Positions 30,592-45,569 of a stretch of 64,000 bases of DNA are shown piece after piece (position 1 is the first letter of the stretch; every line of letters starts with the position of its first letter). The DNA is from an uncultured Clostridia bacterium (GTDB taxonomy: Bacteria; Bacillota; Clostridia; Christensenellales; UBA1242). The notes under the pieces were generated by a model, which saw only the letters and a program-made list of their open reading frames with translations, was not told the DNA's origin and searched no databases. The stretch covers positions 224,104 to 288,103 of the forward strand of contig CALWNC010000001.1 in the NCBI GenBank assembly GCA_944382715.1, in the 5' to 3' direction. Position numbers and translations under genes: made by a program.

Positions 30592-30818
30592 TGAAAAATA
30601 TAAAAGAGATTAGACCTTTACTTAGTGCTATTTATTGCATTAATAGATTAGGAAGTAAAGATGAAGATATTGAAAAAATTTGTAACTATGCTTTTAAAAG
30701 ATTAATGGATTGTAATACAAACTTATTAGCATTGGGTTGTATTGGAAGAATAAAAGAAGATGCAATGAAAGAAATAATGCAACTATTAAAGGAAGAAACA
30801 AAATATATAGGAGAATAA
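30591..30818 (+). CDS. hypothetical protein
   Basis: 75 aa. The ATG overlaps the upstream stop (TAATG). Confidence 0.45.
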   Translation: MKNIKEIRPLLSAIYCINRLGSKDEDIEKICNYAFKRLMDCNTNLLALGCIGRIKEDAMKEIMQLLKEETKYIGE

Positions 30819-31055
30819 ATGAAGATAAATTTAAACAATCCGTATGGATATAAAGTGTGTTATTCGTTGCCAAAACGAAAAAGAAAATTAATAGAATGTA
30901 TACATACAAATACTTATGGTTTAGCTCAGTTTGAAAAACGAAGATATGAAAAATATTCAGAGAATAATAACAATCCATTGTATCGAGCAACCTGGTATAT
31001 AGTACCTATTAAGAAAAGAGAGTATAACAAAATATGGGGAAATTGTCCGTTTTAA
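30819..31055 (+). CDS. hypothetical basic protein
   Basis: 78 aa. RBS GGAGAA. Confidence 0.45.
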   Translation: MKINLNNPYGYKVCYSLPKRKRKLIECIHTNTYGLAQFEKRRYEKYSENNNNPLYRATWYIVPIKKREYNKIWGNCPF

Positions 31056-31068
31056 TAACGGACTTTTT
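31045..31068 (+). terminator. intrinsic terminator
   Basis: GTCCGTT ttaat AACGGAC followed by TTTTT. Confidence 0.6.
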
Positions 31069-31102
31069 CTTTATTAAAAAAATAAAAATTAGGAGGTAAA
31101 AA

Positions 31103-32044
31103 GTGATTAAGTTAAATCTTGAAACAAAGAATAACGAAGAAGAAAAAGTTAAAAATTATTTAGAAGAAAATGTAAGTGAAGTGCTTGTAGAAAAAATAAT
31201 TAATGGTGTGAAAATAATTAAAGAAAATAAGACTTTAATTAGTAAAAAAGACCTAAATAATTTTATGAAATATGCAGCCAATGAAGCTAGAAAAAGTGCT
31301 GTTAATAACTGTGCAATTATAGAAGATGAAGTTGTTTTTGGTTGGGCAGTCCACTACTTTCAAGAAGACGAAATTGAAGGTATTTTATATAACGAAGATG
31401 GGTCTAAATTTGAACCTAAAAATGAGATAAAAAAGCAGGTAAAAAATGAAAATAAAATAGAAGAAATTAAACCTAAAAAAGAAGAGAAAAATAATTATTC
31501 TTTATTTGATTATATTACAAAAGAAGAACCAGAAAAAGTGCAAACCATAGAAAATAAAGAAATTAATAAAATAGAAATATTAGAAGAAAAAGAGTGTAAA
31601 AAAGTGCAATATAGTGAAAATAAAGCTGAAATTAATGCAAATATAAGCGATTTTGCACTAAATAATGCAGTTTTACCACAAACACAAGAAGAATTAATTG
31701 AAATGAAAAATTTAATAAATGAGATAAATTCTTTTGAAGACTATAAAGATGAGCTTTTTGATGATGATAATTATATTCCAAAAAATAACACATTAAATTA
31801 CACAATTAATACAGATACAGGCGAAGTAATTAGAGTTAAAAAAGAGCTTACAAGAGAAGAAAAATTAGAGCAAGAAATTAACAGGAATTTAGGTGATTTT
31901 GAAGAAGAAAATAATAATAATTTAGAAAATAATTTTAATGAAAATTCAGAAGAAAATTGTGAGATTATTTATAAAAATATTGATGAAGATTTTAATAAAT
32001 TAAATGCACTTTTGGAAAATAAATTATTGCTTGCAGGAGGTTAA
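31103..32044 (+). CDS. PcfK-like protein (N-terminal domain) with Glu/Lys/Asn-rich tail
   Basis: GTG start after AGGAGG. The N-terminal ...FMKYAANEARKSAVNNCAIIEDEVVFGWAVHYFQEDEIEG matches my recollection of PcfK-like (AcrIIA9-related) proteins. It lies adjacent to PcfJ. Confidence 0.45.
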   Translation: MIKLNLETKNNEEEKVKNYLEENVSEVLVEKIINGVKIIKENKTLISKKDLNNFMKYAANEARKSAVNNCAIIEDEVVFGWAVHYFQEDEIEGILYNEDGSKFEPKNEIKKQVKNENKIEEIKPKKEEKNNYSLFDYITKEEPEKVQTIENKEINKIEILEEKECKKVQYSENKAEINANISDFALNNAVLPQTQEELIEMKNLINEINSFEDYKDELFDDDNYIPKNNTLNYTINTDTGEVIRVKKELTREEKLEQEINRNLGDFEEENNNNLENNFNENSEENCEIIYKNIDEDFNKLNALLENKLLLAGG

Positions 32045-32045
32045 A

Positions 32046-33362
32046 ATGTTAGATAGAAATTTTAATAAACCTATTCCAAAATATATGTTAAATTTAATAA
32101 AAAAGACAGATAAAAAATGTTATAAATACCCAAGCAGTGTAAGAAGATTTTATTCATATTTTACTAAGTATAAAGGTGAACTTATTAAAGTTACTGTTGC
32201 AGTAAAACATAAGAATAATAATTGGTATTGTAAACAAGTTGCAGTTCACGGAATAGATTCAGAAAACTGTTTACTTAAAGATTTAGAATATTCATATATA
32301 TTTGGCTATTGCGTTGGTTGGTATAGTGAAGGAATTGCAGATAGAAAAAAGAACTATGAAACAGATTATTGGTGCTATGCAGAAGATAAATATTATGACC
32401 CATTTGCTCCTGTTTTAAATAAAGAATATATATTAAAACAAGAAGAGTTCAAATACTCTGCAATAGACAAATATTACTTTGAAGATGTAATGAAATATTT
32501 AAAATTATATAGAAAATATCCACTTGCAGAAATGTTAGTTAAGCTAGGATTATCTAAACTTGCAACAAGTAAATCTATATTAACTAGGCTCGAAAAAGAC
32601 AAGAAATTTAGAAAATGGATTGTTAAAAATAATACTATTTTAATGAATCATTATTTCTATATTAATGCAATAATTAGTGCTTATAAAGGAAATAAAGATT
32701 TACTAACAACACAAAGAATAGAAGAGATAAAGAAAAGATATATAACTGATAAAAACTGCAAAATTATTAAAAATTATATAAAAACAAGCGAATATTTGGC
32801 ACTTTGTGAGTATTTAAGCAAACAAAATGCAGATTTATACATTTATGAAGATTACCTTTCAGCGTGTGAAAAATTAGGTTTAGATTTAAGTTTAAATAAA
32901 AATAAATACCCTAAAGAATTTATGAGATGGCACGATATAAGAATAGATGAATACCATACAAAAAGGGCTTTTGAAGAAGAGCAAGCAAAGAAAGAATTAT
33001 ATACACAATTCTCTAATATTGCTAATAAATATTTAACACTTCAAAGGAACTTAAAAGATGATTTTGTAGTAATAATTGCCAAGAGTCCAACAGATTTAAT
33101 ATTTGAGGGGGAAAGATTAAATCACTGTGTAGGTAGAATGAATTATGATAAAAGATTTATAAGAGAAGAGTCTCTTATATTTTTTATTAGAAACAAAAAT
33201 AGTATTGATACACCATTTGTAACAATGGAGTATTCACTCAAAAATAAAAAGATATTACAATGCTATGGCGACCACGATTCTAAACCAGATGAAAAGGTTT
33301 TAGATTTTGCTTATAAGGTTTGGTTACCTTATGCCAACAGAAAAATAAAGAAAATAGCTTAA
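32046..33362 (+). CDS. PcfJ-like protein
   Basis: ~438 aa. The C-terminal EGERLNHCVGRMNYDKRF...FFIR signature is typical of the PcfJ domain. The ATG at 32046 follows GGAGG. Confidence 0.6.
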   Translation: MLDRNFNKPIPKYMLNLIKKTDKKCYKYPSSVRRFYSYFTKYKGELIKVTVAVKHKNNNWYCKQVAVHGIDSENCLLKDLEYSYIFGYCVGWYSEGIADRKKNYETDYWCYAEDKYYDPFAPVLNKEYILKQEEFKYSAIDKYYFEDVMKYLKLYRKYPLAEMLVKLGLSKLATSKSILTRLEKDKKFRKWIVKNNTILMNHYFYINAIISAYKGNKDLLTTQRIEEIKKRYITDKNCKIIKNYIKTSEYLALCEYLSKQNADLYIYEDYLSACEKLGLDLSLNKNKYPKEFMRWHDIRIDEYHTKRAFEEEQAKKELYTQFSNIANKYLTLQRNLKDDFVVIIAKSPTDLIFEGERLNHCVGRMNYDKRFIREESLIFFIRNKNSIDTPFVTMEYSLKNKKILQCYGDHDSKPDEKVLDFAYKVWLPYANRKIKKIA

Positions 33363-33908: not shown

Positions 33909-33956
33909 AATGATAAAAATAAATTTTATTATAATTCAAATTTTAATGGATATTAA

Positions 33957-33990
33957 AAAGCATATTAGAGTACTCTAATATGCTTTTTTA
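33957..33990 (+). terminator. intrinsic terminator ending first island operon
   Basis: AAAGCATATTAGAG / CTCTAATATGCTTT followed by TTTT. Confidence 0.8.
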
Positions 33991-34036
33991 CTTTGTTTTA
34001 GATTCTCATTATTTGTTCGTTTTTATTGTTTAAATA

Positions 34037-34069
34037 AAGATTAGAGTAAATTAGAGTAAATTTGAATTA
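34037..34069 (+). promoter_or_regulatory. 33-bp conserved promoter-like element, copy 1
   Basis: AAGATTAGAGTAAATTAGAGTAAATTTGAATTA is identical to 41707-41739. It contains the tandem TTAGAGTAAA x2. Confidence 0.6.
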
Positions 34070-34150
34070 AACTTAAAGATAGGTAATGTAACTATCAAAA
34101 ATCAAAGGAGGGAGTCTTATGATATTTTATTTAAAAGGAGAAAAAAAAGT

Positions 34151-34747
34151 ATGGAGGGTGAAATTTTAACATATTTTAAGGGATACTCACCAGAAGTCTT
34201 ACTCATTGCTTTAGGTTCATTTATTCTTACTTACATAGTTAAGAAACCAATTAAAATGGCAACAAACGATTTAAAGGAAAATATAAGAGAAGTTGTAAAT
34301 GTGCTGATAATGTTTATACCATTAATCTTATCATTTCTAGCAACATTATTTTATAATGGGATTGTAACTGGCGAGTGGTTATCTTTAAGAGTGATAGATG
34401 ATGCCTTAACATCATGGCTTTTATCTTTAACTTTATATGCAATAATATCAAAAACTTTAATACTTCTAATAGGGTTAAAAAGTGGAAAAATAACTATTAA
34501 TTCCACTGAAACAAAAGAGATATTAACTGATATAAATAAAACGGTAAAAATAGCAAAAAAAATATCTTCAAAGGATAAACGAGAACTAAAAAATATAGCA
34601 AAAAAAATAAAAACATTAATATCATCAAGAGATCTTTTATTAAAAGATTCAAATAACATAGATTTAACAAAAGTATCAGTATTGAATCAGGAAATAAAAG
34701 AACTCCAAAATCAAGAAAAAGAAATAAAAAATAATTTAAATATTTAG
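34151..34747 (+). CDS. holin-like membrane protein (3 TM + charged coiled-coil tail)
   Basis: 198 aa. Three hydrophobic segments lie in the first ~110 aa, followed by a Lys/Glu-rich C-terminus. It is immediately upstream of the Rhs gene. Confidence 0.4.
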   Translation: MEGEILTYFKGYSPEVLLIALGSFILTYIVKKPIKMATNDLKENIREVVNVLIMFIPLILSFLATLFYNGIVTGEWLSLRVIDDALTSWLLSLTLYAIISKTLILLIGLKSGKITINSTETKEILTDINKTVKIAKKISSKDKRELKNIAKKIKTLISSRDLLLKDSNNIDLTKVSVLNQEIKELQNQEKEIKNNLNI

Positions 34748-34756
34748 GAGGAATTT

Positions 34757-37700
34757 ATGTATAAAATTACTGATAAAGAAAGTTGTTTTACAGTAACAAC
34801 TCAAAATGGTTCTACATATATTAATTATACGCCGAGCTTTTATGGTAAACATCTAAAAATTATTCAATCTGTATTAGTTTTTGATGTTAGCAAACTTGGA
34901 AGTAAAAAAACATTTGATGTGTATGTGAATAACCAAATCATTGATAAAATTAACATTACAAATAATGATAACGTACAAAAAGTATGTATTAATATCACAG
35001 ATGAAGTAAATGATGCATTACTAAATAATACACAAACAGTAAATGTTGAGTTAAGAAATGTTAGCAATTCAATAACAAAAACAGGAATGGAATGCTTAAA
35101 TGAATATATTTTATCTAATCAATGGCTGCCAAATAATGCATATCAAGAAGTTTCTGTTAGAAGAGCTGGTAATTTAAAAATTAATTTAGCAACTCGTGAA
35201 TACAATCTTGCTCATAATGACGTTACTACAAAAAGTAAAGTTCTACCAGCAACAATTACACATATATTTAATTCATTTAATATTGATAGCGATTGTGATA
35301 AAGTTGAAGTTAATGGTGAAGATATTCAACTTCCAAGAAGTAAATGTGGAAATGGTTGGAAATTAAATTGTCAACAATATCTCGTGAAAGAAAGACTTAA
35401 TAATTCATTTGTTGAAAATGATATTTCAGCTAATTACACTTATATAAAAGACGATGGAAGTCATGTATTATTTCAAGAAAAATATTTTTATAAAAATGCA
35501 AATAATGAAAAAGTCTATTTGTACCCTACTCAAATAGACATTCATTTAGATAAAACATTACATTATACTATTAATAATAAAACTTATGATGTTGAATCTG
35601 AAATTATAACAGATTCAGATTATAATTTAGTTAGTAAACTTGAGGGATTCAGTGGATTAGATTTAATTGACAATGATGTTGAAGAAATTCAAAATTTAAA
35701 AAATCAAATTCAAGAATTAAAAGATGCTTTAAATTCTAATGAATTAACACCAACTCAAGATGAAACATACCAAAATTTATTGACAAAACGAATTTTTGAA
35801 TTAAATGAATACGAAAAACAAATTCCAGAAATCTTTATTGAAAATAAAGATGGTTCAATCTTTATGGGTTTTGCAAGATTTAAAAATGATTCCCTTTCTT
35901 CAGCAGATAACTTAAATAAAAGTAATGATATTTATCGACTTATTGTAATTGCTGATAAATATGATAATGTAATCTACATTAAATATAATGACAATGCCGA
36001 TAATTATTTAGATTACAAAATTGATAGTGTAATTGATACTGATAATAATATAGTATCTTTTAAATATGATGAAAAAGATATGTTAAAAGAAATTATTGAT
36101 GATAAAGGTAATGCTTTAACATTTAATTATTTGAATACTAATTCAAATTTCTATTTATCAAATATTACTTATCCTAATGGATTAAAATCTGAGTATAGTT
36201 ATAAAGATTTATTAACTATTTTAAAAATTACTGATTATTCTGGATATTGTATAGAAGTAATAGATTATAGTGCTTCTAACAATTTTACCGTAAAAGAAAA
36301 ATCTAAATATGAAGAATATAATGAAATTGCAAAATTAAATGTAAATTCAGATGGTGTTGTAGAAGAATTGTCTAGAACTAAGTCAAGTATTAATTTTTAC
36401 GATTATAAATCAACAACAGTAAGCGATAGATTTGGAAACTCAAAAACCTATATTTTTGATGTGTATGGTAAACCAGCAATAATATATAATGGAAATTTTA
36501 ATAAAGAAACACCTGACCAAACAAAATTAAACTCCTTATCATATACCTACTCTGATAATAAAATTTCAAAAGCAATAAAAAAATTCAACAATGCTAAAAA
36601 TTTATTAAATGTTTCAACAGAATCTTATGTTGGAGATGATGTATATATGGGAGATGATATATATGCATCTCTTACAGAAACTATAGATTCAACAATTTAT
36701 GAAATGCAAGATACTAATAAAATATATAGTAAACAATTAGATAGTAGTATTATCCAATTAATGACAGAAAGAAGTGGTTGTTTTGTTTTTTCTGCTTGGG
36801 CAAAAGCAGATTCAGCTTATATTAATAAATATGATGATTTAGATTCATACAATGAAATTGAAAATGTAATTTTATCTAATTTAGATTCAAACAAAAAATC
36901 AAGAAAATTTGAATTAAGAGCAGAGATTAAATATACAGGCGAAAACGAAATATATTCGTCATCTAGTTCATTTGATTGGATGCAAACAGAATGGCAATAT
37001 TGTGAAGTACCTATCACAATAGATAAAACAAAAACAGTTGAAAATATTACATTATATCTTGATTATAGTGAAAATACAGGTAATTTAAGTTACTTTGGTT
37101 TATCTTTAAAAGAATGTATGATTGAAACAAATAAATATGATAATAACAAATTATTAATTGAATCACATAACTCATATTATGATATTAAAACAACATATGA
37201 ATATAAAGATAAAAAACTTATAAAGACAAGTTTTACATATAATGGTAAAGATTATGTAAGTAAAAATTATTATAATACACAAGGTTCTTTAATTAAAAGT
37301 ATAGATTATAATGGAATGGTTGAAGAATATGAATACAATGATAAAGGTATAGCAGTAAAAACATGTTCTTATAATATTTTAGACCCTACAAGCAAATTTA
37401 TTGTTTCAAATAATTATGATGAGAAAGGTGTCGAAGTAGGAACTATTGATGAATTTGGTGAAAAATCTCAAAATTATGAATACTCTGAAAATGGCAATTT
37501 ATTAACAGGTATCATAGATAAAAATGGAGATAAAATGGTTTACGGATACAATCCACAAACTGAAGATTTAATGAGTATTAGCACAAGTGTAAATGATGAA
37601 GAAAATAAAAATACATTTGGATACACATTAGGATTATTGACAAGAATTTCTCATAATGATTTTAATATTGATTACACTTTAAATCCTTATGGTGAATTTG

Positions 37701-39883
37701 AGTCTGTCTCAATTGCTGGTCAAAAAATTCTATCATTTTTAAATGCAGAAATTCAAAACTTTCATCATTATTATTATCAAAATTTTGATATTGTTTATAA
37801 ATATTTTGATGATCAAAAAAGGATTACAAAAATAAGATGCGAGTTAGAAGATATTCTTCAAAACGAATACGACACAAATGATAATATTATTTCTCAAACT
37901 GAAACAATTTATGATGAAAATAATCTTTATAATTATGGTTATGATGAAATGGGTAACAAAACCTATGAATGTAAAACAAGAACTGGAACTGAAAATGAAA
38001 AAGAAATAGAAATTGTTACTAAATACAATAAATTCAATAATGTCTCTCAAGAAACAATAACAATTGAAGATGACGGAATTCTCAATTATAATTATCAGTA
38101 TGATGATACTTTTAATAATAAATTACAATCAATTGAACTTCCAAATGAATTATTACAAAGTGTTGAATATGATAGTTTAAATAGACTTAATTTTATTAAT
38201 TATGGAGATAAATTTAGTAAACAAGTTAACTATGTTAAAAGAGGCGAATATTGCTCAAATTTAGTCTCAACTGTAAGATATGGTAAAAACTCTAATTCAG
38301 ATAGTTATTTAAAATATATTTATGATAACAAAGGTAATATTGTTAAAACTCTCGAAAACGGTAGAGAAATTGTAAGATATTCTTATGATTCCCTATCAAG
38401 ACTTATAAGAGAAGATAATAAAGAACTTAAACAAAGTTATTTCATTGAATATGATAAAGGTGGAAATATCATAAGAAAAAGAAGTTGCACTTATACATTA
38501 AAGTCTTTAGATGAAATAGAAGATAGTGCTTTAAGTGAAAATATGTATATTTATCCTGACAGTGGTTGGAAAGATCAATTAATCAGTTTTAATGGTGAAG
38601 AATGTAAGTATGATGAAATTGGAAATCCTAAAACTTATCGTGGTAAAAATCTTACTTGGGGTAAAGTTAGAAATCTAGAAAAAATTGGAACTACAATTAA
38701 TTATAAATATAATGCAAATGGTATTAGAACCAGCAAAAAAGTAAACAATGTGACAACAAAATTTTATCTAAAAGGTAATAAAATAGTTGCACAAGATGAT
38801 GGAAATAAAGTATACTTTCATTATGGAGTAGATGGATTAGTTGGTTTTACTTATAGAGTGTCTGATACTGATATTAGAGAATACTACTACAAAACAGATA
38901 TTTTAGGCAATATTATTGGCATTTATGATGAAAATATGAACCTAATCGTTAAATATATTTATGATGCTTGGGGAAATCATAAAACATATGTTCTTTGTAG
39001 TAATAATTATATTGAAATAACAACATCTAACACAACAACAGAGTTTAAAAATAATAAAACTATTGCCCTACTCAATCCATTTAGATATCACAGTTATTAT
39101 TACGATGAAGAGTCTAAACTCTATTATCTAAATAGCCGTTACTACGACCCAGAAATTGGAAGATTTATTAATGCTGATGATATTAGTGTTTTCGATACAA
39201 CAAAATCCGTTATTAATGGTTTAAACTTATTTGCATATTGTGGTAATAATCCAGTTATGTATACCGATCCTAGTGGACACGCCTTTATTTCTGCATTATT
39301 AATTAGTATTGGTATTGCTGCATTAATTGGAGGATCTACAGCTGGTGTTAGTGCTTATCAATCTGGCAAACATGGATGGGATTTAGTATCTGATATTGCT
39401 GGTGGAGCTATATTTGGAGCAGCTGTCGGAGCTACTATCTCATTAGGTGGAGCGGCGGGCTTAGCTGCCACTGGAGTTAGTGTAGCTGGATTTGGATTAT
39501 CCACAAGTGTTTCTTTAGGAATATCTATTGGAGCCACTGCAGTTGCCGGTATGGCTAAGTATTCACTTAATTGTATTGCTTCAAATGAGAATGATTGGAA
39601 TTTTGGAGGCTTTATTTTATCAGGTATAGAGGGAGCATTACAAGGGGCTTCAACATTTGGTTTTGCTTTTTTTGGCGGAAAATATGGATTGTTTAATAAA
39701 TTAGGAAACTTTAAAACTGCTGATGCCTTTTATATTAATCACGGTGTAATGAATGTTTTAAGTTCTGTATTTTGGGGATCAAAAGTGTTAATTGGAGAAA
39801 CATTTTCAAAAGCACTTTTTGTAAGTGGTTTTGCTTCTTTAGTAAGATGGTTAATTGATTTAATGATTCCAAATTTATATTAG
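34757..39883 (+). CDS. Rhs/YD-repeat polymorphic toxin with Gly-rich membrane-active C-terminal domain
   Basis: 1708 aa. Many YD repeats (YEYNDKG, YIYDNKGNIV, YDEIGNP...). Rhs core: YYLNSRYYDPEIGRFINADD...NPVMYTDPSGH (39266-39280 encodes DPSGH). The 200-aa CT (39281-39880) is full of GxxxG/A zippers. No signal peptide, LXG or PAAR motif seen. Confidence 0.85.
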   Translation: MYKITDKESCFTVTTQNGSTYINYTPSFYGKHLKIIQSVLVFDVSKLGSKKTFDVYVNNQIIDKINITNNDNVQKVCINITDEVNDALLNNTQTVNVELRNVSNSITKTGMECLNEYILSNQWLPNNAYQEVSVRRAGNLKINLATREYNLAHNDVTTKSKVLPATITHIFNSFNIDSDCDKVEVNGEDIQLPRSKCGNGWKLNCQQYLVKERLNNSFVENDISANYTYIKDDGSHVLFQEKYFYKNANNEKVYLYPTQIDIHLDKTLHYTINNKTYDVESEIITDSDYNLVSKLEGFSGLDLIDNDVEEIQNLKNQIQELKDALNSNELTPTQDETYQNLLTKRIFELNEYEKQIPEIFIENKDGSIFMGFARFKNDSLSSADNLNKSNDIYRLIVIADKYDNVIYIKYNDNADNYLDYKIDSVIDTDNNIVSFKYDEKDMLKEIIDDKGNALTFNYLNTNSNFYLSNITYPNGLKSEYSYKDLLTILKITDYSGYCIEVIDYSASNNFTVKEKSKYEEYNEIAKLNVNSDGVVEELSRTKSSINFYDYKSTTVSDRFGNSKTYIFDVYGKPAIIYNGNFNKETPDQTKLNSLSYTYSDNKISKAIKKFNNAKNLLNVSTESYVGDDVYMGDDIYASLTETIDSTIYEMQDTNKIYSKQLDSSIIQLMTERSGCFVFSAWAKADSAYINKYDDLDSYNEIENVILSNLDSNKKSRKFELRAEIKYTGENEIYSSSSSFDWMQTEWQYCEVPITIDKTKTVENITLYLDYSENTGNLSYFGLSLKECMIETNKYDNNKLLIESHNSYYDIKTTYEYKDKKLIKTSFTYNGKDYVSKNYYNTQGSLIKSIDYNGMVEEYEYNDKGIAVKTCSYNILDPTSKFIVSNNYDEKGVEVGTIDEFGEKSQNYEYSENGNLLTGIIDKNGDKMVYGYNPQTEDLMSISTSVNDEENKNTFGYTLGLLTRISHNDFNIDYTLNPYGEFESVSIAGQKILSFLNAEIQNFHHYYYQNFDIVYKYFDDQKRITKIRCELEDILQNEYDTNDNIISQTETIYDENNLYNYGYDEMGNKTYECKTRTGTENEKEIEIVTKYNKFNNVSQETITIEDDGILNYNYQYDDTFNNKLQSIELPNELLQSVEYDSLNRLNFINYGDKFSKQVNYVKRGEYCSNLVSTVRYGKNSNSDSYLKYIYDNKGNIVKTLENGREIVRYSYDSLSRLIREDNKELKQSYFIEYDKGGNIIRKRSCTYTLKSLDEIEDSALSENMYIYPDSGWKDQLISFNGEECKYDEIGNPKTYRGKNLTWGKVRNLEKIGTTINYKYNANGIRTSKKVNNVTTKFYLKGNKIVAQDDGNKVYFHYGVDGLVGFTYRVSDTDIREYYYKTDILGNIIGIYDENMNLIVKYIYDAWGNHKTYVLCSNNYIEITTSNTTTEFKNNKTIALLNPFRYHSYYYDEESKLYYLNSRYYDPEIGRFINADDISVFDTTKSVINGLNLFAYCGNNPVMYTDPSGHAFISALLISIGIAALIGGSTAGVSAYQSGKHGWDLVSDIAGGAIFGAAVGATISLGGAAGLAATGVSVAGFGLSTSVSLGISIGATAVAGMAKYSLNCIASNENDWNFGGFILSGIEGALQGASTFGFAFFGGKYGLFNKLGNFKTADAFYINHGVMNVLSSVFWGSKVLIGETFSKALFVSGFASLVRWLIDLMIPNLY

Positions 39884-39897
39884 AAGGGTTGGTTTAA

Positions 39898-40341
39898 ATG
39901 AAAATAAAAAAAAATTTTTTTCATGTAATATTCTTTAGTTTATTTTTCGAGTTAATAAGTATTATTCTTGTAACTATAGGATTTTTCTTAGGATTTGAGA
40001 TAAATAAAAATAATATTTTAATTTATTTATTAATAATTATATGCATTATTTTTTTGGGATTTATTATATGTTGCGTGTATTTTTTATTTTGCAAAACATA
40101 TTATGAGTTTACAAATAATTCTATAAAAATAACAAGAAAAGATAATCTTGTTAAAGAGATTAATTATAATACAATAATTTATTGTGAATATTATAAGTTT
40201 ATTACTTTATTATGGGGAGATTCTAAAGGTGGTAAATTAATGGTTTATTATTTGGAAAATGATATAGAAAAAAACATAGAGATATCTTTTTCTAAAAAAC
40301 TAACTAAAAAGTTGGTTATTAAAAATATTTATATAAAATAA
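39898..40341 (+). CDS. putative immunity protein (membrane)
   Basis: 147 aa with 2 TM segments. Directly follows the toxin gene. Confidence 0.55.
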   Translation: MKIKKNFFHVIFFSLFFELISIILVTIGFFLGFEINKNNILIYLLIIICIIFLGFIICCVYFLFCKTYYEFTNNSIKITRKDNLVKEINYNTIIYCEYYKFITLLWGDSKGGKLMVYYLENDIEKNIEISFSKKLTKKLVIKNIYIK

Positions 40342-40439
40342 CAACATCTAACACAACAACAGAATTTAAAAATAATAAAACTATTGCCCTACTCAATCCA
40401 TTTAGATATCGCAGTTACTATTATGATGAAGAATCTAAA

Positions 40440-41141
40440 TTGTATTACTTAAACAGCAGATACTATGACCCTGAAACTGGTAGATTTATTAATGCTGATG
40501 ATATTAGTATTTTAAATACAACTAAGTCTGTTATTAATGGACTAAATTTATATGCATATTGTAAAAACAATCCAATTATGAACATTGACACTAATGGAAA
40601 TTGGAGTTGGAAAAATTTTTTTGGTTGGGTTTTTGTTGGTGTTGAAATTGCAGTTGCTTCAATTGCTATTGCATATGGCGTAGTAGCATCAATTTCAGGA
40701 AATGACTTACTTAGTTCATCATTAATTGGATTTGGAACAGGTGTTATATCTGAAATAATAACATCTACAACTCAAAATTTAGATAATTCGATACAAATTG
40801 CTATTAATGGTTTTAAAGGTGGAGTGATTGGAGGTACAGCGGGATTTGTTGCTGGTGGAATTGGTTTAATGGGAGAATATTATGGAAATATATTAGGTAA
40901 CACTTTAAGCAACATGACTATATTATCTAGTGGAATAAAACTATCTAAAATTATTAATCCATCAATAATCATTAGTTTAATTTCTACAATGTCTTCAATA
41001 GTCGCTGGAATTGGAAGTGGAATTCTAATTCAAAATTTATTTTATAATGAGAATGATATGTATGAAAATGCAACAAATTCATTAAAAGATGAAATTAAAT
41101 CAATTATATATGAAATTTTTAGATATTTTGCACTTCAATAA
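40440..41141 (+). CDS. orphan Rhs C-terminal toxin cassette (core remnant + alternative Gly-rich CT)
   Basis: The ORF retains YYLNSRYYDPETGRFINADD...NPIMNIDTNGN. Nucleotide homology to the main rhs (39016-39262) starts at 40337, upstream of any start codon. The CT differs from the main toxin. Confidence 0.7.
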   Translation: MYYLNSRYYDPETGRFINADDISILNTTKSVINGLNLYAYCKNNPIMNIDTNGNWSWKNFFGWVFVGVEIAVASIAIAYGVVASISGNDLLSSSLIGFGTGVISEIITSTTQNLDNSIQIAINGFKGGVIGGTAGFVAGGIGLMGEYYGNILGNTLSNMTILSSGIKLSKIINPSIIISLISTMSSIVAGIGSGILIQNLFYNENDMYENATNSLKDEIKSIIYEIFRYFALQ

Positions 41142-41152
41142 AGGAGAAGTTT

Positions 41153-41650
41153 ATGTATAAAAGGAAAGATATCGTATTTGGAGCAAAAAAGGGTTATTAT
41201 TTTAATGATAATCTTATTGACTATACATATGGGCTATATGGGATTTTTTTATTTCTTCTTATTTTTGCTTTTACATTATATGTTATATATAAAGATTTTG
41301 AATGTTTTGAATTATTAATATTAACTCTAATTGTTAATGTAATTGTTTTCTTAGTTACTTTTCCATTGGTTTTAAAAGAAATAAAAATGAAAAAATATTT
41401 AAAATTATGTTTAAAAGATTATGTCAAATTAAAAGCAAATGTAAAATGTTATGATGCATTCTATAAACATAAAGTATATGTAATAAAATTTATTTATAAT
41501 GGTAAAAATATTGAATATAAAAGCAATATTGTAAAAGTAACCTACTTTAATAAAGCCATTTTTAATAAATTTATTGGTAAAAAAATAAATATTTTATATT
41601 CACCAAGTATGAATGATATCTTATTCTTAAAAAAGCAAGATAAAAATTAG
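41153..41650 (+). CDS. putative immunity protein for orphan toxin (membrane)
   Basis: 165 aa with 2 TM segments. RBS AAGGAGAA. Confidence 0.5.
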   Translation: MYKRKDIVFGAKKGYYFNDNLIDYTYGLYGIFLFLLIFAFTLYVIYKDFECFELLILTLIVNVIVFLVTFPLVLKEIKMKKYLKLCLKDYVKLKANVKCYDAFYKHKVYVIKFIYNGKNIEYKSNIVKVTYFNKAIFNKFIGKKINILYSPSMNDILFLKKQDKN

Positions 41651-41661
41651 TATATAAAAAT

Positions 41662-41698
41662 GAAGTAAACCCAACAAGGTTTACTTCATTTTTTTTAT
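41662..41698 (+). terminator. intrinsic terminator
   Basis: GAAGTAAAC ccaacaag GTTTACTTC followed by TTTTTTTT. Confidence 0.8.
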
Positions 41699-41706
41699 TA
41701 AATAAA

Positions 41707-41739
41707 AAGATTAGAGTAAATTAGAGTAAATTTGAATTA
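41707..41739 (+). promoter_or_regulatory. 33-bp conserved promoter-like element, copy 2
   Basis: Identical to 34037-34069. Lies 54 nt upstream of the tail-fibre-like gene. Confidence 0.6.
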
Positions 41740-41792
41740 TAATAGAAGTAGATAGATTACATTACCCTAAAAATTTATAAAGGAGAAAAAAT

Positions 41793-42842
41793 ATGGAATT
41801 TAAAAATCGAGTACCAAATAACAAAAACAGAGTTTTAATAACTCCAGAAAATGGAACAAGTGCATTTCATGCAGTAATAACAAGACAAGATAATCCTCAA
41901 GCAGGAAACGAAGGAACAATGTTAGAAGCTGGAATATTTAATAACTTAAGCGAAGAAATAAAAAATAATAAAATTAAATCAGAAAAAGCAATTGAAGACT
42001 CAGAGAAGGCTTTAGATGTTGTAGATAATTTATCAGTTACAACAACGGAAATAGCTTCAACTGCTACCCCATTTGTTGAAATTAATACAACTGAAGAAAC
42101 TGGCAGAAAAACACTAAATTTTAATATCCCTGCATCAAAACAAGGAAAATCGTATAGACACAGAGGAATTTGGGCTAGTAGTCTTACCTACTATAATAAT
42201 GACCTATATATCGATACAGTAACATTTAATGGTTGTACATATTATGCAAAGTTGACTAATTCGGCTAAAGAGCCACTTGATCTTGCAGATAATACATATT
42301 GGGGACTACTAGCGCAAAGAGGAGGAAGTTCAAATGTTGTCATAAATGATGTGATTAATGCTATTTATCCAATAGGTTCAATTTATATGTCAGTAAATGT
42401 TACATCTCCAGAAACCCTTTTTGGTGGAAATTGGGAACAGTTAAAAGATAGATTTTTACTTTCTGCTGGAGATTATTATAGTGCAGGACAAACTGGTGGA
42501 GAATCAAGCCATGTTTTACAAATTTCAGAATTACCAGGTCATAATCATAATATTAGTATTTCAGACAGGTCAATCACAGGAAGTTTCCAATTTACAGATA
42601 ATGATGGTGGAGATAATTATTATGTTAAAGCTAAAGCAGCAGATGGAGTTTTTTCAATTCAAAATGCAAGTGGTCATTATTTTGTAAATTCAAATGGTTC
42701 TAAATCTGGAACATATTCAACTGGTATTAATATGAATGCAACTCACAATCACACAGGCTCATCAACAAATACAGGAAACAATTCAGCTCACAATAATATG
42801 CCACCTTATTTAGTAGTATATATGTGGAAAAGAACATCATAA
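41793..42842 (+). CDS. phage tail-fibre / tail-collar-domain protein
   Basis: N-terminal NRVLITPENGT...EGTMLEAGIFNNL, CBM5/12-like YYAKL...YWGLLAQRG, and C-terminal GGESSHVLQISELPGHNH ... NNMPPYLVVYMWKRT (collar-type motif). Confidence 0.65.
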   Translation: MEFKNRVPNNKNRVLITPENGTSAFHAVITRQDNPQAGNEGTMLEAGIFNNLSEEIKNNKIKSEKAIEDSEKALDVVDNLSVTTTEIASTATPFVEINTTEETGRKTLNFNIPASKQGKSYRHRGIWASSLTYYNNDLYIDTVTFNGCTYYAKLTNSAKEPLDLADNTYWGLLAQRGGSSNVVINDVINAIYPIGSIYMSVNVTSPETLFGGNWEQLKDRFLLSAGDYYSAGQTGGESSHVLQISELPGHNHNISISDRSITGSFQFTDNDGGDNYYVKAKAADGVFSIQNASGHYFVNSNGSKSGTYSTGINMNATHNHTGSSTNTGNNSAHNNMPPYLVVYMWKRTS

Positions 42843-43023
42843 TTTATTTAAAATAGTAATAAATAAAAATAAATTTATTTTTTTAAATAAAAAATTTATA
42901 TATAACTTAACTTGTCTATTCTTAAATTTAAGAGTAGGCATTTTTATTTGAAAAATATTGACAAAAAAGATTAAGAAAAAACAAAGAATGACAAAAAAAG
43001 ACATATATAAAACTTGACTTTTT

Positions 43024-43052
43024 AAAAATATATCATTGTAAGATATATTTTT
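43024..43052. promoter_or_regulatory. 11-bp perfect inverted repeat, candidate operator upstream of XRE gene
   Basis: AAAAATATATC attgtaa GATATATTTTT. Direct repeats TGACAAAAAAGA lie at ~42959 and ~42988. Confidence 0.35.
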
Positions 43053-43132
43053 AATTTATTATTAAATATTTACATCTTAAAACACACAACCTTTTTCTAT
43101 AAGATATTATAAAATATATATAAGAGGATTTT

Positions 43133-43459
43133 ATGAAAAAAGATTTTACTTATGATGATATAATTTATAGAATAGGTTATTTTAGAAATATAAATAATAT
43201 TTCTGCTAGAGATTTGAGTCTTCAATTAGGTTATAGTGAATCAGAGATAAATAGAATTGAAAGAAAAACTATAAAACTTAAAGTTTCAACCTTATTAAAT
43301 ATTTTAGAAATATTTGATATAACACCTATTGAATTTTTCTATCCAAATCTAGAAGACTACAAAATAGATATGGAATTATTAAACTTATTTTCACAATTGA
43401 AAAGTGAGGATAAAAAATCATTAATTCAATTAATCTCAAAAATAATTAAAGCGAAATAA
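43133..43459 (+). CDS. XRE-family HTH regulator
   Basis: 108 aa. ISARDLSLQLGYSESEINRIERK is a typical HTH_3. Confidence 0.7.
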   Translation: MKKDFTYDDIIYRIGYFRNINNISARDLSLQLGYSESEINRIERKTIKLKVSTLLNILEIFDITPIEFFYPNLEDYKIDMELLNLFSQLKSEDKKSLIQLISKIIKAK

Positions 43460-43463
43460 ACTG

Positions 43464-43997
43464 ATGACTACTACTGAAGAAAAAGAATACATTAATACAC
43501 TTGTTAAAAAGTTAAAATTTAATGATGAAATAACATTTGAATCTTTGTATAAAATAATGTACAAAAAGTTATATATTTATTTAAAATTCTTAGGTGCTGA
43601 TGACTTTACTATTGAAGATGTAATTTCCAGCACTTTTATTATTGTTTATCAAAAAGCAAAACACAAAATTTTTTATAAGAATTGTTATTATTGGATATTA
43701 AAAATCTCTAAATATACATTTTATAATTACAATAGAAAATATAAAAAAGATGTTAGCTATGAACTAATTCAATATGAAAAAATTGATATTAGCCAAAACG
43801 GAATTGCAGAACATTTATCATTAATTGATATTTTAAATAATCTGCCGAATATTGAAAAACAAATCTTACAGCTAAAAATATATCAAGGATTAACAAATAA
43901 ACAAATCTCGAAAATTTTAAATATATCCGAATCAACAATTATTCGAAAATTTAATCATATAAAAGAATATATAGAAAGGAATAATTTTTATGAATAA
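43464..43997 (+). CDS. sigma-70-family (ECF/TcdR-like size) RNA polymerase sigma factor
   Basis: 177 aa. Region-4 HTH: LTNKQISKILNISESTIIRKFNHIKEYI. Region-2-like N-terminal half. Confidence 0.65.
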   Translation: MTTTEEKEYINTLVKKLKFNDEITFESLYKIMYKKLYIYLKFLGADDFTIEDVISSTFIIVYQKAKHKIFYKNCYYWILKISKYTFYNYNRKYKKDVSYELIQYEKIDISQNGIAEHLSLIDILNNLPNIEKQILQLKIYQGLTNKQISKILNISESTIIRKFNHIKEYIERNNFYE

Positions 43998-44649
43998 AAA
44001 AATGCAAAAAGATATTAATGAATATTTTGATAAAGAATCCCCTGAACCAAATATGGAAACCTTTAGAAAAATAAAAGAACATATTTATAATAATCAAAAT
44101 CAAAAAAAACAGACGCTTAAATATGTACTACCTATGGCATCTATTGTAATAATAACAGTTATCTCTATTATATTCACATTAATACTTACAAATAAAACAC
44201 CACCAAGTAACCCAACCACTCCCCCTAATTACTATATGGATAGCACATTAACAAAAACTGATACAAATATAGAGTTTTTACAAGATTATATATCAAATTA
44301 TTATAAAAAATATGATTTTATTTTTTCAGAAGATTATGAAATATATGAGTGTTCAAAATTTTCTCATGAAGGAAATATTAAAATGTTAAATATAAAATTG
44401 TATAATAATTTACCACCCTTTACAGAGATAGAGATGATTTTAATTATAGATAATCTATTAATTTATAGTGATGATGATAATTTTAAAACTTCTGCAATAA
44501 TTACAACTACAAATAATTACAAAATGTATTATAAAGAAATTGAAGGATTGTATATGAATAAAATTAATGTTCTTTTTGAATATGAAAATTATAGATTATA
44601 TTTATCTTTTAATATGCAAGATACAGAGTTACTAGAAAAATTTAAATAA
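43990..44649 (+). CDS. single-pass membrane protein, putative anti-sigma factor
   Basis: Overlaps the sigma gene by 8 nt. 44-aa cytoplasmic N-terminus, one TM segment (aa ~45-66), and a ~150-aa external domain. Confidence 0.4.
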   Translation: MNKKMQKDINEYFDKESPEPNMETFRKIKEHIYNNQNQKKQTLKYVLPMASIVIITVISIIFTLILTNKTPPSNPTTPPNYYMDSTLTKTDTNIEFLQDYISNYYKKYDFIFSEDYEIYECSKFSHEGNIKMLNIKLYNNLPPFTEIEMILIIDNLLIYSDDDNFKTSAIITTTNNYKMYYKEIEGLYMNKINVLFEYENYRLYLSFNMQDTELLEKFK

Positions 44650-44672
44650 TTTTAAAATTTTTTGACAGTTTT

Positions 44673-44707
44673 ATACCTCCTTATGACATTTATTAGTAAG
44701 GAGGTAT
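44673..44707 (+). promoter_or_regulatory. 11-bp perfect hairpin sequestering the RBS of the peptidase gene (or weak terminator)
   Basis: ATACCTCCTTA (44673-44683) pairs with TAAGGAGGTAT (44697-44707). The 3' arm contains the SD AAGGAGG for the ATG at 44713. Confidence 0.55.
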
Positions 44708-44712
44708 TTTAT

Positions 44713-45543
44713 ATGATAAAAAAATTATTAGCAGTGTTAGGGGTGTTTATTTTAATTTTTAGTAATAATGTAATTAATGTTACAAATTCTTCAAATGCTA
44801 TTTATAGAGAAAAATATTATTGTGGCACAAATTATTTTGACACAGGATTAAATTTTACACATATTGAAAATGAAGTATATTATGATGATTATGAAATAAT
44901 AGATAATCATTTAGAAAGATTTTGTCCAAATTATGATAATATAAATCATACAAATTCTTGTGCACCATTGGCAGGAACAATATTAATTGGTTACTATGAT
45001 TATGAATATGAAAATCTTATTCCTAATTTTGTTTCAGGTTCATATTACAATAATATTTTTACTTATAGACCTAGAACAAGTAAAGTTCAAGCAGTAAAAG
45101 ATAGCCTTTATAATCTCATGGGAACAAATTCAATTGAACCAGGAACTTCCGTTAATCAATTTAAAACAGGTCTTCAATCTTATGTAAATAATAGTGGATA
45201 CAATATATCCTATAACTCTTGTGGTAGTAATTTTAATCTACAAACAGCTTTAGGTTATTTTAATAGCGAAATGCCTATAGCTTTATTTTTAACAGGCTAT
45301 GAATATTATCCTGAAAATGGATTATTTAGAGAAGAAGGTCACTATTCAATGGGAGGACGATTAAGTTCAGGCACACATGTTTGCATAGCATATGGTTACA
45401 GACAACTAAATTATTATAATGATGGAGAGCTGTTTAGAAGTGATAATTATTTAATTGTTGTTTATGGAGACGGCACTCAAGGACTTTTAGCACTTAATAC
45501 AAATACTGGTATAGATGAAGCATATGGCATAGATATTTATTAA
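44713..45543 (+). CDS. secreted papain-fold cysteine peptidase-like protein
   Basis: Signal peptide MIKKLLAVLGVFILIF. Candidate Cys (NSCAPLAGTILIGYY) and His (GTHVCIAYGY) motifs resemble C10/C39-like peptidases. Weak call. Confidence 0.4.
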   Translation: MIKKLLAVLGVFILIFSNNVINVTNSSNAIYREKYYCGTNYFDTGLNFTHIENEVYYDDYEIIDNHLERFCPNYDNINHTNSCAPLAGTILIGYYDYEYENLIPNFVSGSYYNNIFTYRPRTSKVQAVKDSLYNLMGTNSIEPGTSVNQFKTGLQSYVNNSGYNISYNSCGSNFNLQTALGYFNSEMPIALFLTGYEYYPENGLFREEGHYSMGGRLSSGTHVCIAYGYRQLNYYNDGELFRSDNYLIVVYGDGTQGLLALNTNTGIDEAYGIDIY

Positions 45544-45569
45544 ATCAATATAAAATTAAAATAAAACAC

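Follow-up and report, generated by a model that had tools for sequence, protein, structure and literature searches.

Colicin and pyocin operons combine a toxin, an immunity protein and a lysis gene under SOS control, and the colicin lysis proteins are small lipoproteins. Among Rhs effectors, Tse5 carries a C-terminal domain (CT) of the glycine-zipper type that depolarises membranes. Published accounts of the Clostridioides difficile PaLoc describe the toxins TcdA and TcdB together with the holin-like TcdE, the sigma factor TcdR, TcdC and the endolysin remnant TcdL, and describe the release of TcdA and TcdB as holin-dependent. In the type 10 secretion of Yersinia entomophaga, the Rhs/YD-shell toxin YenTc is cytoplasmic and is freed by phage-derived lysis in a sacrificial subpopulation, which provides a precedent for the release of a large leaderless toxin by a lysis cassette with a holin (PMC10847046).

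The window analyzed here is a 64-kb stretch of a 407-kb contig from an uncultured gut member of the Bacillota with a low GC content; positions are those of the window, and features lie on the forward strand except where the reverse strand is given. All ORFs listed in a preliminary description of this DNA were found at their coordinates, and its observation as a whole was confirmed. Its interpretation stood in so far as an integrated element of mosaic make-up here carries a toxin/immunity locus of the Rhs type, without a recognisable export signal, and its analogy with the PaLoc was upheld in part. Our preferred reading, held tentatively, is that the locus is a phage-late-regulated Rhs bacteriocin module whose toxin may be released by a 198-aa membrane protein. 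The toxin genes form one operon between terminators (approximately 34040-41690), encoding a protein with three transmembrane (TM) helices, the leaderless Rhs protein with its 2-TM immunity protein, and a CT/immunity pair that has been displaced. A terminator-like hairpin with a stem of 15 pairs and a T run after it closes the upstream unit (33955-33988), and a hairpin search located another at the operon end (41656-41693). A large serine recombinase, recognized by a domain match (57073-58578), is probably close to the island's right end, and the element has a LexA/S24-type repressor on the reverse strand (55726-56334; Peptidase_S24, 5.7e-30).

The 1708-aa Rhs protein (34757-39883) is a leaderless polymorphic toxin according to its matches to RHS_repeat (Pfam, 2.8e-12) and TIGR03696 and to known structures, and the profile matches bore out the canonical core previously reported for it. 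The Rhs-associated core (aa 1434-1508, 39056-39280; TIGR03696 Rhs_assc_core, 6.7e-20) has DPSG at its end, the motif reading YYLNSRYYDPEIGRF...DPSG/H. Solved Rhs and Tc structures resembled the protein over the core alone. Residues 1-120 (34757-35116) were modeled as a jelly-roll, CBM-like beta-sandwich (AF2 pLDDT approximately 85), for which Foldseek returned generic jelly-roll and carbohydrate-binding folds (E 2e-4 to 7e-3). The DUF6531-like region that follows (aa ~125-300, 35129-35656) was matched by PF20148 in seven of 15 family members, and a short coiled coil comes after it, at aa ~300-350. This DUF6531-like/coiled-coil segment was kept across 143 representative proteins, and relatives had coiled-coil inserts of varying length at the same position. 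Judged by their sequences, the N-terminal jelly-roll and the coiled-coil insert are specific to one Rhs family of uncultured gut Bacillota.

The C-terminal domain (aa 1509-1708, 39281-39883) had been described as built from glycine zippers, and its composition and motif counts agreed: this putative hydrophobic toxin of 201 aa has a GRAVY of 0.77 and 16% Gly. GxxxG occurs seven times in it, and zipper motifs of the small-xxx-small kind, counted with overlaps, 23 times. It had no relative in Pfam or the PDB. Directly 3' of the toxin is the gene for a putative immunity protein of 147 aa (39898-40341), for which the two TM helices reported earlier were again predicted. A displaced, or orphan, Rhs core with an alternative hydrophobic CT follows (40380-41141, ORF 40440-41141; TIGR03696, 2.8e-14); at the nucleotide level its homology to the main core begins at ~40380, is close as far as the DPxG-equivalent site and is lost beyond it. 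The orphan CT is accompanied by its own putative immunity protein (165 aa, two predicted TM helices, 41153-41650), relatives of which are encoded 3' of Rhs genes in three related loci (L018, L024 and L030). This displaced core-CT/immunity pair (40440-41141 and 41153-41650) was not part of the preliminary description.

No export signal was recognized in the Rhs protein, as the preliminary description had also concluded. LXG, WXG, PAAR, prePAAR and cell-wall-anchor domains were all missing from its profile matches in Pfam, NCBIfam and PHROGs, the protein contains no LPxTG, and a simple hydropathy and motif check found no signal-peptide-like segment at the N-terminus. Likewise, there was no T6SS or T7SS gene among the ~40 window ORFs scanned, which were all but roughly ten smaller ones. 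Sec signal peptides were found in just two Rhs relatives (L023 and L025), both of which were without a gene of the 198-aa type.

The 198-aa protein (34151-34747) is, from its topology and synteny, a candidate release or partner factor for Rhs. Its TM helices span residues of about 14-30, 47-68 and 87-108 and are followed by a net-positive coiled-coil tail of 90 aa (+20/-12 charges); by the positive-inside rule the protein is predicted to be N-out, C-in. Only 9 nt, with the ribosome-binding site AGGAGG, separate its gene from that of Rhs. The family is tiny (14 clusters), and it is placed beside leaderless Rhs genes in seven independent lineages and away from them in three others. Relatives are encoded directly 5' of a large Rhs gene in L008/L009, L017, L024/L026-28, L029 and L030/31, and in L010 the relative is divergent, yet has its own copy of the promoter motif found in the window, which indicates deliberate co-regulation. 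The 198-aa protein is thus genuinely tied to Rhs, by the 9-nt gap, by the single terminator-bounded operon and by the synteny in seven lineages.

The upstream gene had been called holin-like, and of this the class-I-holin topology and the tie to Rhs were upheld. However, the protein had no match to holin families in Pfam (also up to E 5), PHROGs or NCBIfam, including the TcdE family (Phage_holin_4_1), and no fold match. A tblastn search of 50,697 phage genomes turned up nothing similar, and IMG/VR held no match either. No endolysin gene is beside it, and the island contains no recognisable peptidoglycan hydrolase. The term holin-like therefore describes topology alone. In addition, 198 aa is long for a holin, which counts against a lysis reading.

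The same lack of holin homology and of an endolysin would suit a non-lytic adaptor or dock, in which the coiled-coil tail binds Rhs, perhaps through the coiled-coil insert, and takes it to the membrane, where it would be translocated or displayed on the surface, possibly with the fibre-like protein described below, for contact-dependent delivery. The long helical tail on the cytoplasmic side, the variable inserts at a fixed position in the Rhs relatives and the tight synteny are all consistent with such a role. We nevertheless consider it unlikely, as a 3-TM protein of 198 aa offers no obvious channel through which a folded ~190-kDa cocoon could pass, the neighborhoods showed no conserved gene for a partner translocase, and the phage-late and SOS-type regulatory context suits suicidal release better.

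The distribution of the family also bears on whether the 198-aa protein has anything to do with release. Members were found in Rhs-free operons (L034/L035, L032 and L033), the close ones being 44-50% identical to Rhs-linked members, and several leaderless Rhs relatives (L011-L013, L015, L019 and L020) had no gene of this type within 8 kb, so the gene is not obligatory. Every Rhs linked to the family has a hydrophobic CT, and a helper role related to the CT is therefore possible. These observations, and the fact that the genome is visible only in part, would fit an Rhs that exits by a T7SSb or an unknown system whose genes are elsewhere in the genome, by general autolysis or by lysis due to another prophage, with the 198-aa protein, for example, shielding the producer membrane from hydrophobic glycine-zipper toxins or being a general small membrane protein. 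To this we assign a low probability. The 198-aa protein is kept across different CTs, each with a candidate immunity gene of its own after it; the L010 relative has its own copy of the promoter; and the Rhs N-terminus has no T7SS targeting feature.

Our preferred reading, release by the 198-aa protein, draws further on the regulation of the locus. The repeat previously noted at 34037 and 41707 is real: a 32-nt promoter/operator element with TTAG-N6 repeats, AGATTAGAGTAAATTAGAGTAAATTTGAATTA, is present in two identical copies (34037-34068 and 41707-41738). The TTAG-N6 x3 motif had 17 matches (12 distinct sites) where 0.07 were expected, and each match preceded a gene for Rhs, the membrane protein or a fibre-like protein. 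It had been proposed that the sigma factor of the island acts at these sites, but across loci the element tracked ArpU-like regulators and not ECF sigma factors. The window encodes an ArpU/sigma-region-4-like regulator of 109 aa (45616-45945; TIGR01637, 2.5e-5, below cut-off), and an ArpU-like gene was found in every locus with the motif and a visible upstream region (the window, L010, L012, L013, L015 and L017; L008/L009 carry the motif but are too short to judge). In the five related loci it is directly 5' of the Rhs or membrane-protein gene. Since the TTAG promoter, where the upstream region is visible, recurs only in loci with an ArpU-like regulator, this gene (45616-45945) is a more likely candidate than the ECF sigma factor for the activator of these promoters.

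The sigma factor belongs to a set that begins with an HTH_3 regulator identified with Pfam (108 aa, 43133-43459). The earlier claim of a small sigma factor, a single-pass putative anti-sigma and a secreted peptidase held for the first two proteins and for an N-terminal hydrophobic segment in the third, but not for a peptidase family. The ECF-type sigma factor (177 aa, 43464-43997) scored above the TIGR02937 cut-off (46.7 bits against 42.9). The stop of its gene is overlapped by the start of the gene for the putative anti-sigma (219 aa, 43990-44649), which has one TM helix at residues 42-71 and no family match. The third product (44662-45543, probable start ATG 44713) is a putative secreted hydrolase by hydropathy and the conservation of invariant Cys/His, with no match in Pfam, the PDB or any family. 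The HTH/sigma/anti-sigma-like/secreted-protein set flanks Rhs relatives in L020 and L029, with relatives of the sigma factor and of the 44662-45543 protein in both and of the 219-aa protein in L020.

This recurrence beside Rhs, with the leaderless toxin and the three TM helices of the upstream protein, is the part of the PaLoc analogy that survived. In its strict form, the ECF sigma factor would transcribe the toxin operon from the repeat, the single-pass protein would be its anti-sigma and the 198-aa protein a TcdE-type holin. We consider this improbable, because the repeat is missing from the loci that have only the ECF sigma factor (L029 and L020) and from the region upstream of the sigma operon itself, but is present in ArpU-like loci without an ECF sigma factor, and because the TcdE family was not matched. 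In L029 and L020, a CGTC tetramer noticed by eye in the upstream regions is a possible -10 of the ECF type.

The second copy of the element precedes a tail-fibre-like gene (41793-42842), which thus shares its promoter element with the Rhs operon; its 349-aa product has a Gp10_C domain (PF21939, 2.9e-20) and matched PHROG tail families. Relatives of this gene adjoin Rhs in L010, L011 and L017. An inovirus-like module adjoins the Rhs cassette in the window and in one relative, L017. On the reverse strand of the window it comprises an HUH Rep gene broken into three ORFs (46753-47825), all covered by an intact 346-aa homolog in L017, and a Zot-like assembly ATPase (48120-48947), 31% identical to the Zot of an Inoviridae genome and 73% identical to its L017 counterpart. 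ImmR/ImmA-type switches adjoin the ArpU-Rhs genes in L012 and L013. Taken together, the co-regulated fibre-like gene, the inovirus-like surroundings and the ImmR/ImmA switches suggest a logic of the phage-late or colicin-like kind and not a PaLoc homolog.

With Zot/Rep genes abutting the ArpU-membrane-protein-Rhs cassette in two loci, a co-regulated fibre-like gene and a match of the orphan core segment to the phage protein family PHROG 10385, it is conceivable that Rhs and the fibre-like protein belong to a phage-like particle, for example one of the adjacent inovirus-like element, and serve in its structure or host range. This is very improbable. Most Rhs relatives lack Zot/Rep neighbors, the Rep gene is broken in the window, Rhs aa 1-381 had no tblastn match in phage or plasmid collections, and a polymorphic CT, immunity genes and an orphan module are hallmarks of interbacterial toxins.

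In the bacteriocin-module reading, the ArpU-like regulator would activate both TTAG promoters, of the Rhs operon and of the fibre-like gene, and may itself be downstream of the HTH/ECF-sigma/anti-sigma set and the repressor of the element. The Rhs cocoon would fold in the cytoplasm with the glycine-zipper toxin encapsulated, and the 198-aa protein is proposed to permeabilise or lyse the producer, like a holin or colicin lysis protein, so that the cocoon of roughly 190 kDa could get out. Target cells might be bound by the jelly-roll domain, by the fibre-like protein or by the two together, and the hydrophobic CT would insert in the target membrane and depolarise it, while the 2-TM immunity protein would shield sister cells. 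The shared phage-style promoter that ties a leaderless Rhs to a membrane partner and a fibre-like protein points to an undescribed and unproven release route for such toxins in Gram-positives.

Among known systems, CTXphi-type filamentous prophages likewise place an inovirus-like module (Zot-like ATPase, HUH Rep and repressor) beside a toxin cassette, as in the window and L017. However, Rep is broken in the window, the putative cargo of 8-12 kb is very large for an inovirus, and the linkage to Rhs occurs in two of ~20 loci, with packaging of the cassette hypothetical. With the WapA type (Sec-dependent and wall-associated) and T6SS Rhs effectors such as Tse5, the window protein shares the RHS-repeat cocoon, the DPxG autoproteolysis core, a polymorphic CT whose immunity gene lies downstream, and the presence of orphan modules. 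It differs in having no signal peptide, PAAR, VgrG or Eag partner, and its similarity to Tse5 in the PDB is limited to the core. Colicin and pyocin operons resemble the window in that a small gene of membrane-active type is joined to the toxin and immunity genes in one unit with a repressor or phage-type switch (LexA-like here, ImmR/ImmA in related loci), but the toxin architecture and the candidate lysis protein are entirely different, and regulation is apparently through an ArpU-type activator. The likeness to YenTc lies in the Rhs/YD shell, with cytoplasmic production and lytic release proposed here from the genes; YenTc relies on a holin, an endolysin and spanins that can be recognised as such and depends on the TcA injector, whereas the window has one uncharacterised membrane protein and no lysin, in a Gram-positive host, with a fibre-like protein replacing TcA. 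As in the PaLoc, a large toxin without a signal peptide adjoins a 3-TM protein, in an island that also has genes for a small sigma factor and for a putative anti-sigma anchored in the membrane. Unlike the PaLoc, the 198-aa protein has no TcdE homology, there is no endolysin remnant, the sigma factor is of the ECF type, the occurrence of the promoter element goes with ArpU-like regulators, and the toxin is an Rhs cocoon accompanied by an immunity gene, which indicates that it is aimed at bacteria and not at host cells.

The DNA at 34.0-46.0 kb very probably holds an Rhs toxin/immunity locus that includes an orphan module and is regulated together with a small membrane protein and a fibre-like protein, from promoters of the phage-late type. 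The Rhs protein (34757-39883, 1708 aa) contained RHS/YD shell repeats (PF05593, 2.8e-12; TIGR01643, 7.4e-11) and an Rhs-associated core at aa 1434-1508 that scored 71.4 bits against TIGR03696 (cut-off 32.5 bits). The core ended in a DPxG-type autoproteolysis site (YTDPSG, the next residue being H), as the preliminary description had stated, and similarity to solved Rhs and Tc structures was limited to the core. The predicted C-terminal toxin domain (CT) that follows was 201 aa long (aa 1509-1708), hydrophobic and Gly-rich (GRAVY 0.77, 16% Gly, seven GxxxG motifs), which agrees with the glycine-zipper domain previously claimed; this composition held, but the CT profile search that had been proposed alongside it found no meaningful relative in Pfam or the PDB. 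The 2-TM gene expected after the toxin was in place directly 3' of the Rhs gene, and its 147-aa product is the putative immunity protein. From about 40380 the DNA closely resembled that of the main core as far as the site equivalent to DPxG and diverged beyond it, giving a second hydrophobic CT (ORF 40440-41141) followed by its own 2-TM putative immunity gene (41153-41650). A variable CT, a cognate immunity gene and an orphan CT/immunity module make up the standard anatomy of Rhs loci, and on anatomy alone the protein would be classed as a polymorphic toxin. The Rhs shell also carried an insert (36680-37130, aa ~640-790; SAWAKADSA...RKFELRAE...WQYC...YLDYSENTG) that was conserved family-wide and may form an additional domain exposed at the surface.

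The preliminary description had found no export signal in this protein, and database searches gave the same result. No LXG, WXG, PAAR or wall-anchor domain was detected with Pfam, NCBIfam or PHROGs. The LXG/WXG helical domain found at the N-terminus of T7SS substrates had no Pfam or NCBIfam match, the N-terminus being a predicted beta-sandwich, and the features of T6SS effectors were missing as well, with no PAAR/prePAAR domain and no VgrG or Eag neighbours. A simple check of hydropathy and motifs showed no signal peptide, Tat (twin-arginine) motif or LPxTG, and about 40 ORFs scanned in the window included no T6SS or T7SS genes, again as claimed. A known secretion-targeting domain in the N-terminus, which the preliminary description had named as refuting its reading, was looked for and not found: the family searches (Pfam, NCBIfam, PHROGs), the motif checks and the N-terminal model all gave none.

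A word-indexed search with Rhs aa 1-700 returned no match, and an exhaustive HMMER search with the same region returned 143 representative proteins. The best-scoring full-length matches were mostly Rhs-type proteins of ~1800-2000 aa from uncultured Bacillota with the same region at their N-termini, and none of the 19 family representatives examined at full length had a signal peptide. An AlphaFold model built from 15 family members showed a confident beta-sandwich at aa 1-120 (pLDDT ~85), for which Foldseek found only generic jelly-roll and carbohydrate-binding folds (E 2e-4 to 7e-3) and no secretion adaptors. This was followed by a DUF6531-like stretch at aa ~125-300, the usual pre-repeat region, in which PF20148 was matched in 7 of the 15 members, and then by a coiled coil that was short in the Rhs protein of the window and reached several hundred residues in relatives. 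A profile of the N-terminal region gave only coiled-coil noise against PDB sequences; tblastn with the N-terminus had no match in phages or plasmids, and its alignment (A1) gave no confirmed match in IMG/VR. Among the related loci compared with the window (here numbered L008 to L035), about 20 Rhs relatives had visible N-termini, and signal peptides were found only in two distant ones, L023 and L025. A second Rhs subfamily tied to the membrane protein (L024, L026, L029, L030) had a longer N-terminal extension with a conserved MGTLKLN(K/R) start; this peptide might be a recognition tag.

The gene directly 5' of the Rhs gene encodes a 198-aa membrane protein (34151-34747, plus strand), and the 9-nt gap between them contained a ribosome-binding site. 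Terminator-like hairpins at both ends delimited a single unit running from the membrane-protein gene through the orphan immunity gene. Relatives of the protein, down to ~20-30% identity, were encoded directly 5' of large Rhs genes in L008/L009, L017, L024/L026-28, L029 and L030/31, and in L010 a relative was divergent from the Rhs gene. Both loci with signal peptides on their Rhs proteins (L023 and L025) had no membrane-protein gene, in what is a small sample. A metagenome scan also found family members with no Rhs gene nearby (L032, L033, L034/L035), those in L034/L035 being 44-50% identical to Rhs-linked members, and several leaderless Rhs relatives had no membrane-protein gene within 8 kb. 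These last two observations speak for a less likely alternative, that the Rhs protein is exported by an unlinked system and the membrane protein has a different role. The close relatives in L034 (5706-12000) and L035 (5655-12806) were part of a tightly packed Rhs-free operon that, by eye, included a P-loop kinase-like gene, two small carrier-protein-like ORFs and an AMP-ligase-like gene; in L035 the neighbours of the family members had no PDB relatives.

The preliminary description had called this protein holin-like, and that claim stood for its topology. The model (AF2 mean pLDDT 80) contained three TM helices followed by a helical tail of 90 aa, and because of the distribution of charge over loop 1 (+5/-2), loop 2 (+1/-3) and the tail (+20/-12) the protein is predicted to be N-out with a cytoplasmic tail, which is the topology of class-I holins. 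At 198 aa it is above the usual holin length, with the TM helices and charged tail of a holin both present. Family, fold, phage and lysin evidence, however, did not support the claim. Searches with the protein in Pfam, PHROGs and NCBIfam gave no match to a holin family, a Pfam search at E values up to 5 was likewise negative for four of its relatives, and the TcdE family (Phage_holin_4_1) was matched neither by the protein at E <=0.1 nor by these relatives at E <=5. Foldseek with the model found nothing below E 0.1, tblastn found no match in 50,697 phage genomes, and IMG/VR contained none. Among 5.8 billion proteins, a profile of the family recovered only 14 clusters, none of which had a Pfam domain. 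No lysin domain was found in the island ORFs scanned, no endolysin or peptidoglycan hydrolase was recognised beside the gene, and a 293-aa Cys/His protein was assigned to no family by PDB and Pfam searches. A less likely rival reading of the same protein, as a non-lytic dock or adaptor for the Rhs protein, draws on these negative results and on the cytoplasmic tail. Two upstream proteins in other loci were considered and discarded: that of L016, a candidate LL-H-type holin, was not confirmed as such by Pfam, and the L018 membrane protein, considered as an analogue, belonged to the Rhs gene before it as its immunity protein.

The sites noted earlier at 34037 and 41707 proved to be a 32-nt sequence identical in both places (34037-34068 and 41707-41738), with TTAG repeats at 10-bp spacing. 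The pattern TTAG-N6-TTAG-N6-T[TG][AT]GAA occurred 17 times across the window and the related loci (0.07 in shuffles), at 12 distinct sites, and every site was just 5' of an Rhs gene, a membrane-protein relative or a fibre-like gene. In L010 the motif preceded both the Rhs gene and, on the opposite strand, the membrane-protein gene. Where the upstream region was visible (the window, L010, L012, L013, L015 and L017; L008 and L009 were too short to show it), every pattern-bearing locus had an ArpU/sigma-region-4-like gene. This gene was immediately upstream in L010, L012, L013, L015 and L017, and this placement directly ahead of its presumed target promoters, seen in five loci, favours a role as activator. 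The motif was absent from the loci with only an ECF sigma factor (L029, L020) and from the region 5' of the window's own sigma operon. Because the motif tracks ArpU-like genes in this way, both promoters in the window can be assigned to the ArpU-like gene at 45616-45945 as the candidate activator. Its product scored 24.5 bits against TIGR01637, below the 43.1-bit cut-off, in a match confined to its region-4-like C-terminus.

The sigma factor, anti-sigma-like protein and secreted protein of the island had been proposed as possible regulators. The sigma factor does match ECF models (TIGR02937, 46.7 bits, cut-off 42.9), and the set recurs beside Rhs relatives, with all three genes in L020 and HTH, sigma and secreted-protein genes in L029, so the association of the sigma/secreted-protein set with Rhs toxins is real. 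The promoter element, however, co-varies with ArpU-like genes rather than with the ECF sigma. A strict and unlikely reading of the locus as a PaLoc of the C. difficile type, in which the sigma factor would drive the toxin promoter as those of the TcdR family (group 5) do, has the recurrence of this set on its side, and against it the behaviour of the promoter element and the missing match to the TcdE family. A regulatory cascade from the sigma operon to the ArpU-like gene is possible, since the latter lies just downstream, 72 nt 3' of the HTH/ECF-sigma/anti-sigma-like/secreted-protein operon and beyond a hairpin. By eye, L029 (2730-2760) and L020 (7540-7570) had a CGTC tetramer in place of the TTAG repeats 5' of the Rhs or membrane-protein gene, which could be an ECF-type -10 element. 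In L012 (5850-6829) and L013 (6183-7149), HTH_3 and Peptidase_M78 genes (ImmR/ImmA-type) were divergent from the ArpU-like gene preceding Rhs, a minimal repressor, activator, toxin arrangement, and L015 had divergent ORFs of similar size at 6497-7274.

The fibre-like gene (41793-42842) encodes a Gp10_C domain with matches to PHROG tail families and is preceded by the promoter element also found at the Rhs operon. Genes related to its N- or C-terminal part adjoined Rhs genes in L010, L011 and L017, and in L017 a TTAG-repeat site again preceded the fibre-like gene. No other tail genes were present. The shared regulation of the fibre-like gene speaks for a further, improbable alternative, that the Rhs protein is a component of a particle, and the CT and immunity anatomy of the locus speaks against it.

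Convergent to the Rhs cassette was an inovirus-like module (46753-55208, minus strand) with a Zot-like ATPase, an HUH Rep, a coat-like 53-aa TM protein (51238-51399) and an 801-aa coiled-coil Cys-rich protein. The Zot-like ATPase matched PHROG 197 (8e-10) and was 31% identical to its counterpart in a 9.8-kb Inoviridae member; Zot-like queries gave no confirmed match in IMG/VR. The Rep match was weak, and the gene was broken into three ORFs (46753-47205, 47212-47442, 47478-47825). In L017 (940-6210) the Zot-like gene was 73% identical, Rep was unbroken at 346 aa, and the ArpU-like, membrane-protein and Rhs genes followed directly. Two long G+C-rich inverted repeats (46205-46275 and 46497-46580) lay in the 800 bp that separate the ArpU-like gene from Rep, similar hairpins were found between Rep and ArpU in L017, and gut metagenome depth at 46205-46275 was several-fold above its surroundings. 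These repeats may be an ssDNA origin or packaging hairpins.

The window has a G+C content of ~25-30%, and the island (~28.3-58.6 kb) is bordered by housekeeping genes including nrdD/nrdG, tyrosyl-tRNA synthetase, transketolase, recF and dnaA. Four segments make up this mosaic island: ArdA (anti-restriction), PcfK-like and PcfJ-like genes on the left (29307-33362), with no relaxase or type IV secretion genes in view alongside them in the window; the Rhs cassette and its regulators; the inovirus-like module; and an S24/LexA-type repressor with a large serine recombinase. Positions 24151-44747 (20.6 kb compared) were identical to part of a 407-kb metagenome contig, and the Rhs segment was found in chicken, bovine and sheep gut metagenomes. 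A near-identity DNA search of 34000-42000 gave no match in plasmids or phages, Rfam had no matches across the window, and no public RNA runs containing the locus were found. Metagenome contigs mapped onto the AT-rich locus were too noisy to define excision or variants, and the sole point confirmed by this mapping was that the repeated promoter element is a place where assemblies break. In one chicken-gut run, contig depth was ~100 on the Rhs operon but fell far below this, with uneven coverage, between the second promoter copy and the ArpU-like gene (41766-45900), which suggests, in noisy data, strain variation 3' of the repeat. At 25847-28207, Wzy_C-like and radical-SAM ORFs were in frame with one TGA between them, and the public gene call joins them into a single 786-aa product. 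Genetic code 4, raised by this read-through, was rejected because only one such read-through was clean, and nothing elsewhere in the window supported it; the TGA could reflect read-through, selenocysteine, a pseudogene or a gene-caller artefact.

The locus bears on how large Rhs toxins with no signal peptide, LXG or PAAR leave Gram-positive cells. The mechanism we favour, tentatively and at slightly less than even chances, is colicin-like or type-10-like release of the Rhs cocoon by the membrane protein, followed by attack on a target membrane. On induction, the 198-aa protein would permeabilise or lyse the producer and set the cytoplasmic cocoon free; the jelly-roll domain, the fibre, or both would bind the target, and the glycine-zipper CT would then attack its membrane. 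Lysis-type release has a precedent in YenTc (PMC10847046), and TcdE-dependent toxin release is another. It is a bolder and rather unlikely proposal that the 198-aa protein is the first of a new family whose members release or export signal-less Rhs cocoons from Gram-positive gut bacteria. It and the co-regulated fibre-like protein would then belong to a three-part "Rhs bacteriocin" of releaser, cocoon toxin and targeting fibre. A late regulator of the ArpU type would switch this module on at TTAG-repeat promoters, and integrated elements, inovirus-like ones among them, would spread it. No description of this family or arrangement was found in the literature searched.

The locus and its relatives from chicken, ruminant and other gut metagenomes form a compact, testable candidate system, consisting of a small membrane protein, a toxin and its immunity protein, a fibre-like protein, and a defined promoter motif for which there is a candidate activator. 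Should the membrane protein not be the releaser, the locus is still a clean case of an Rhs bacteriocin that is under phage-type regulation and carries a displaced toxin module. If it is the releaser, holin- or lysis-coupled secretion, so far associated with clostridial glucosylating toxins and Gram-negative Tc toxins, would extend to the interbacterial Rhs weapons of gut Bacillota, and the three-part Rhs bacteriocin, if real, would give Gram-positive bacteria a counterpart to Tc-toxin/type-10 release.
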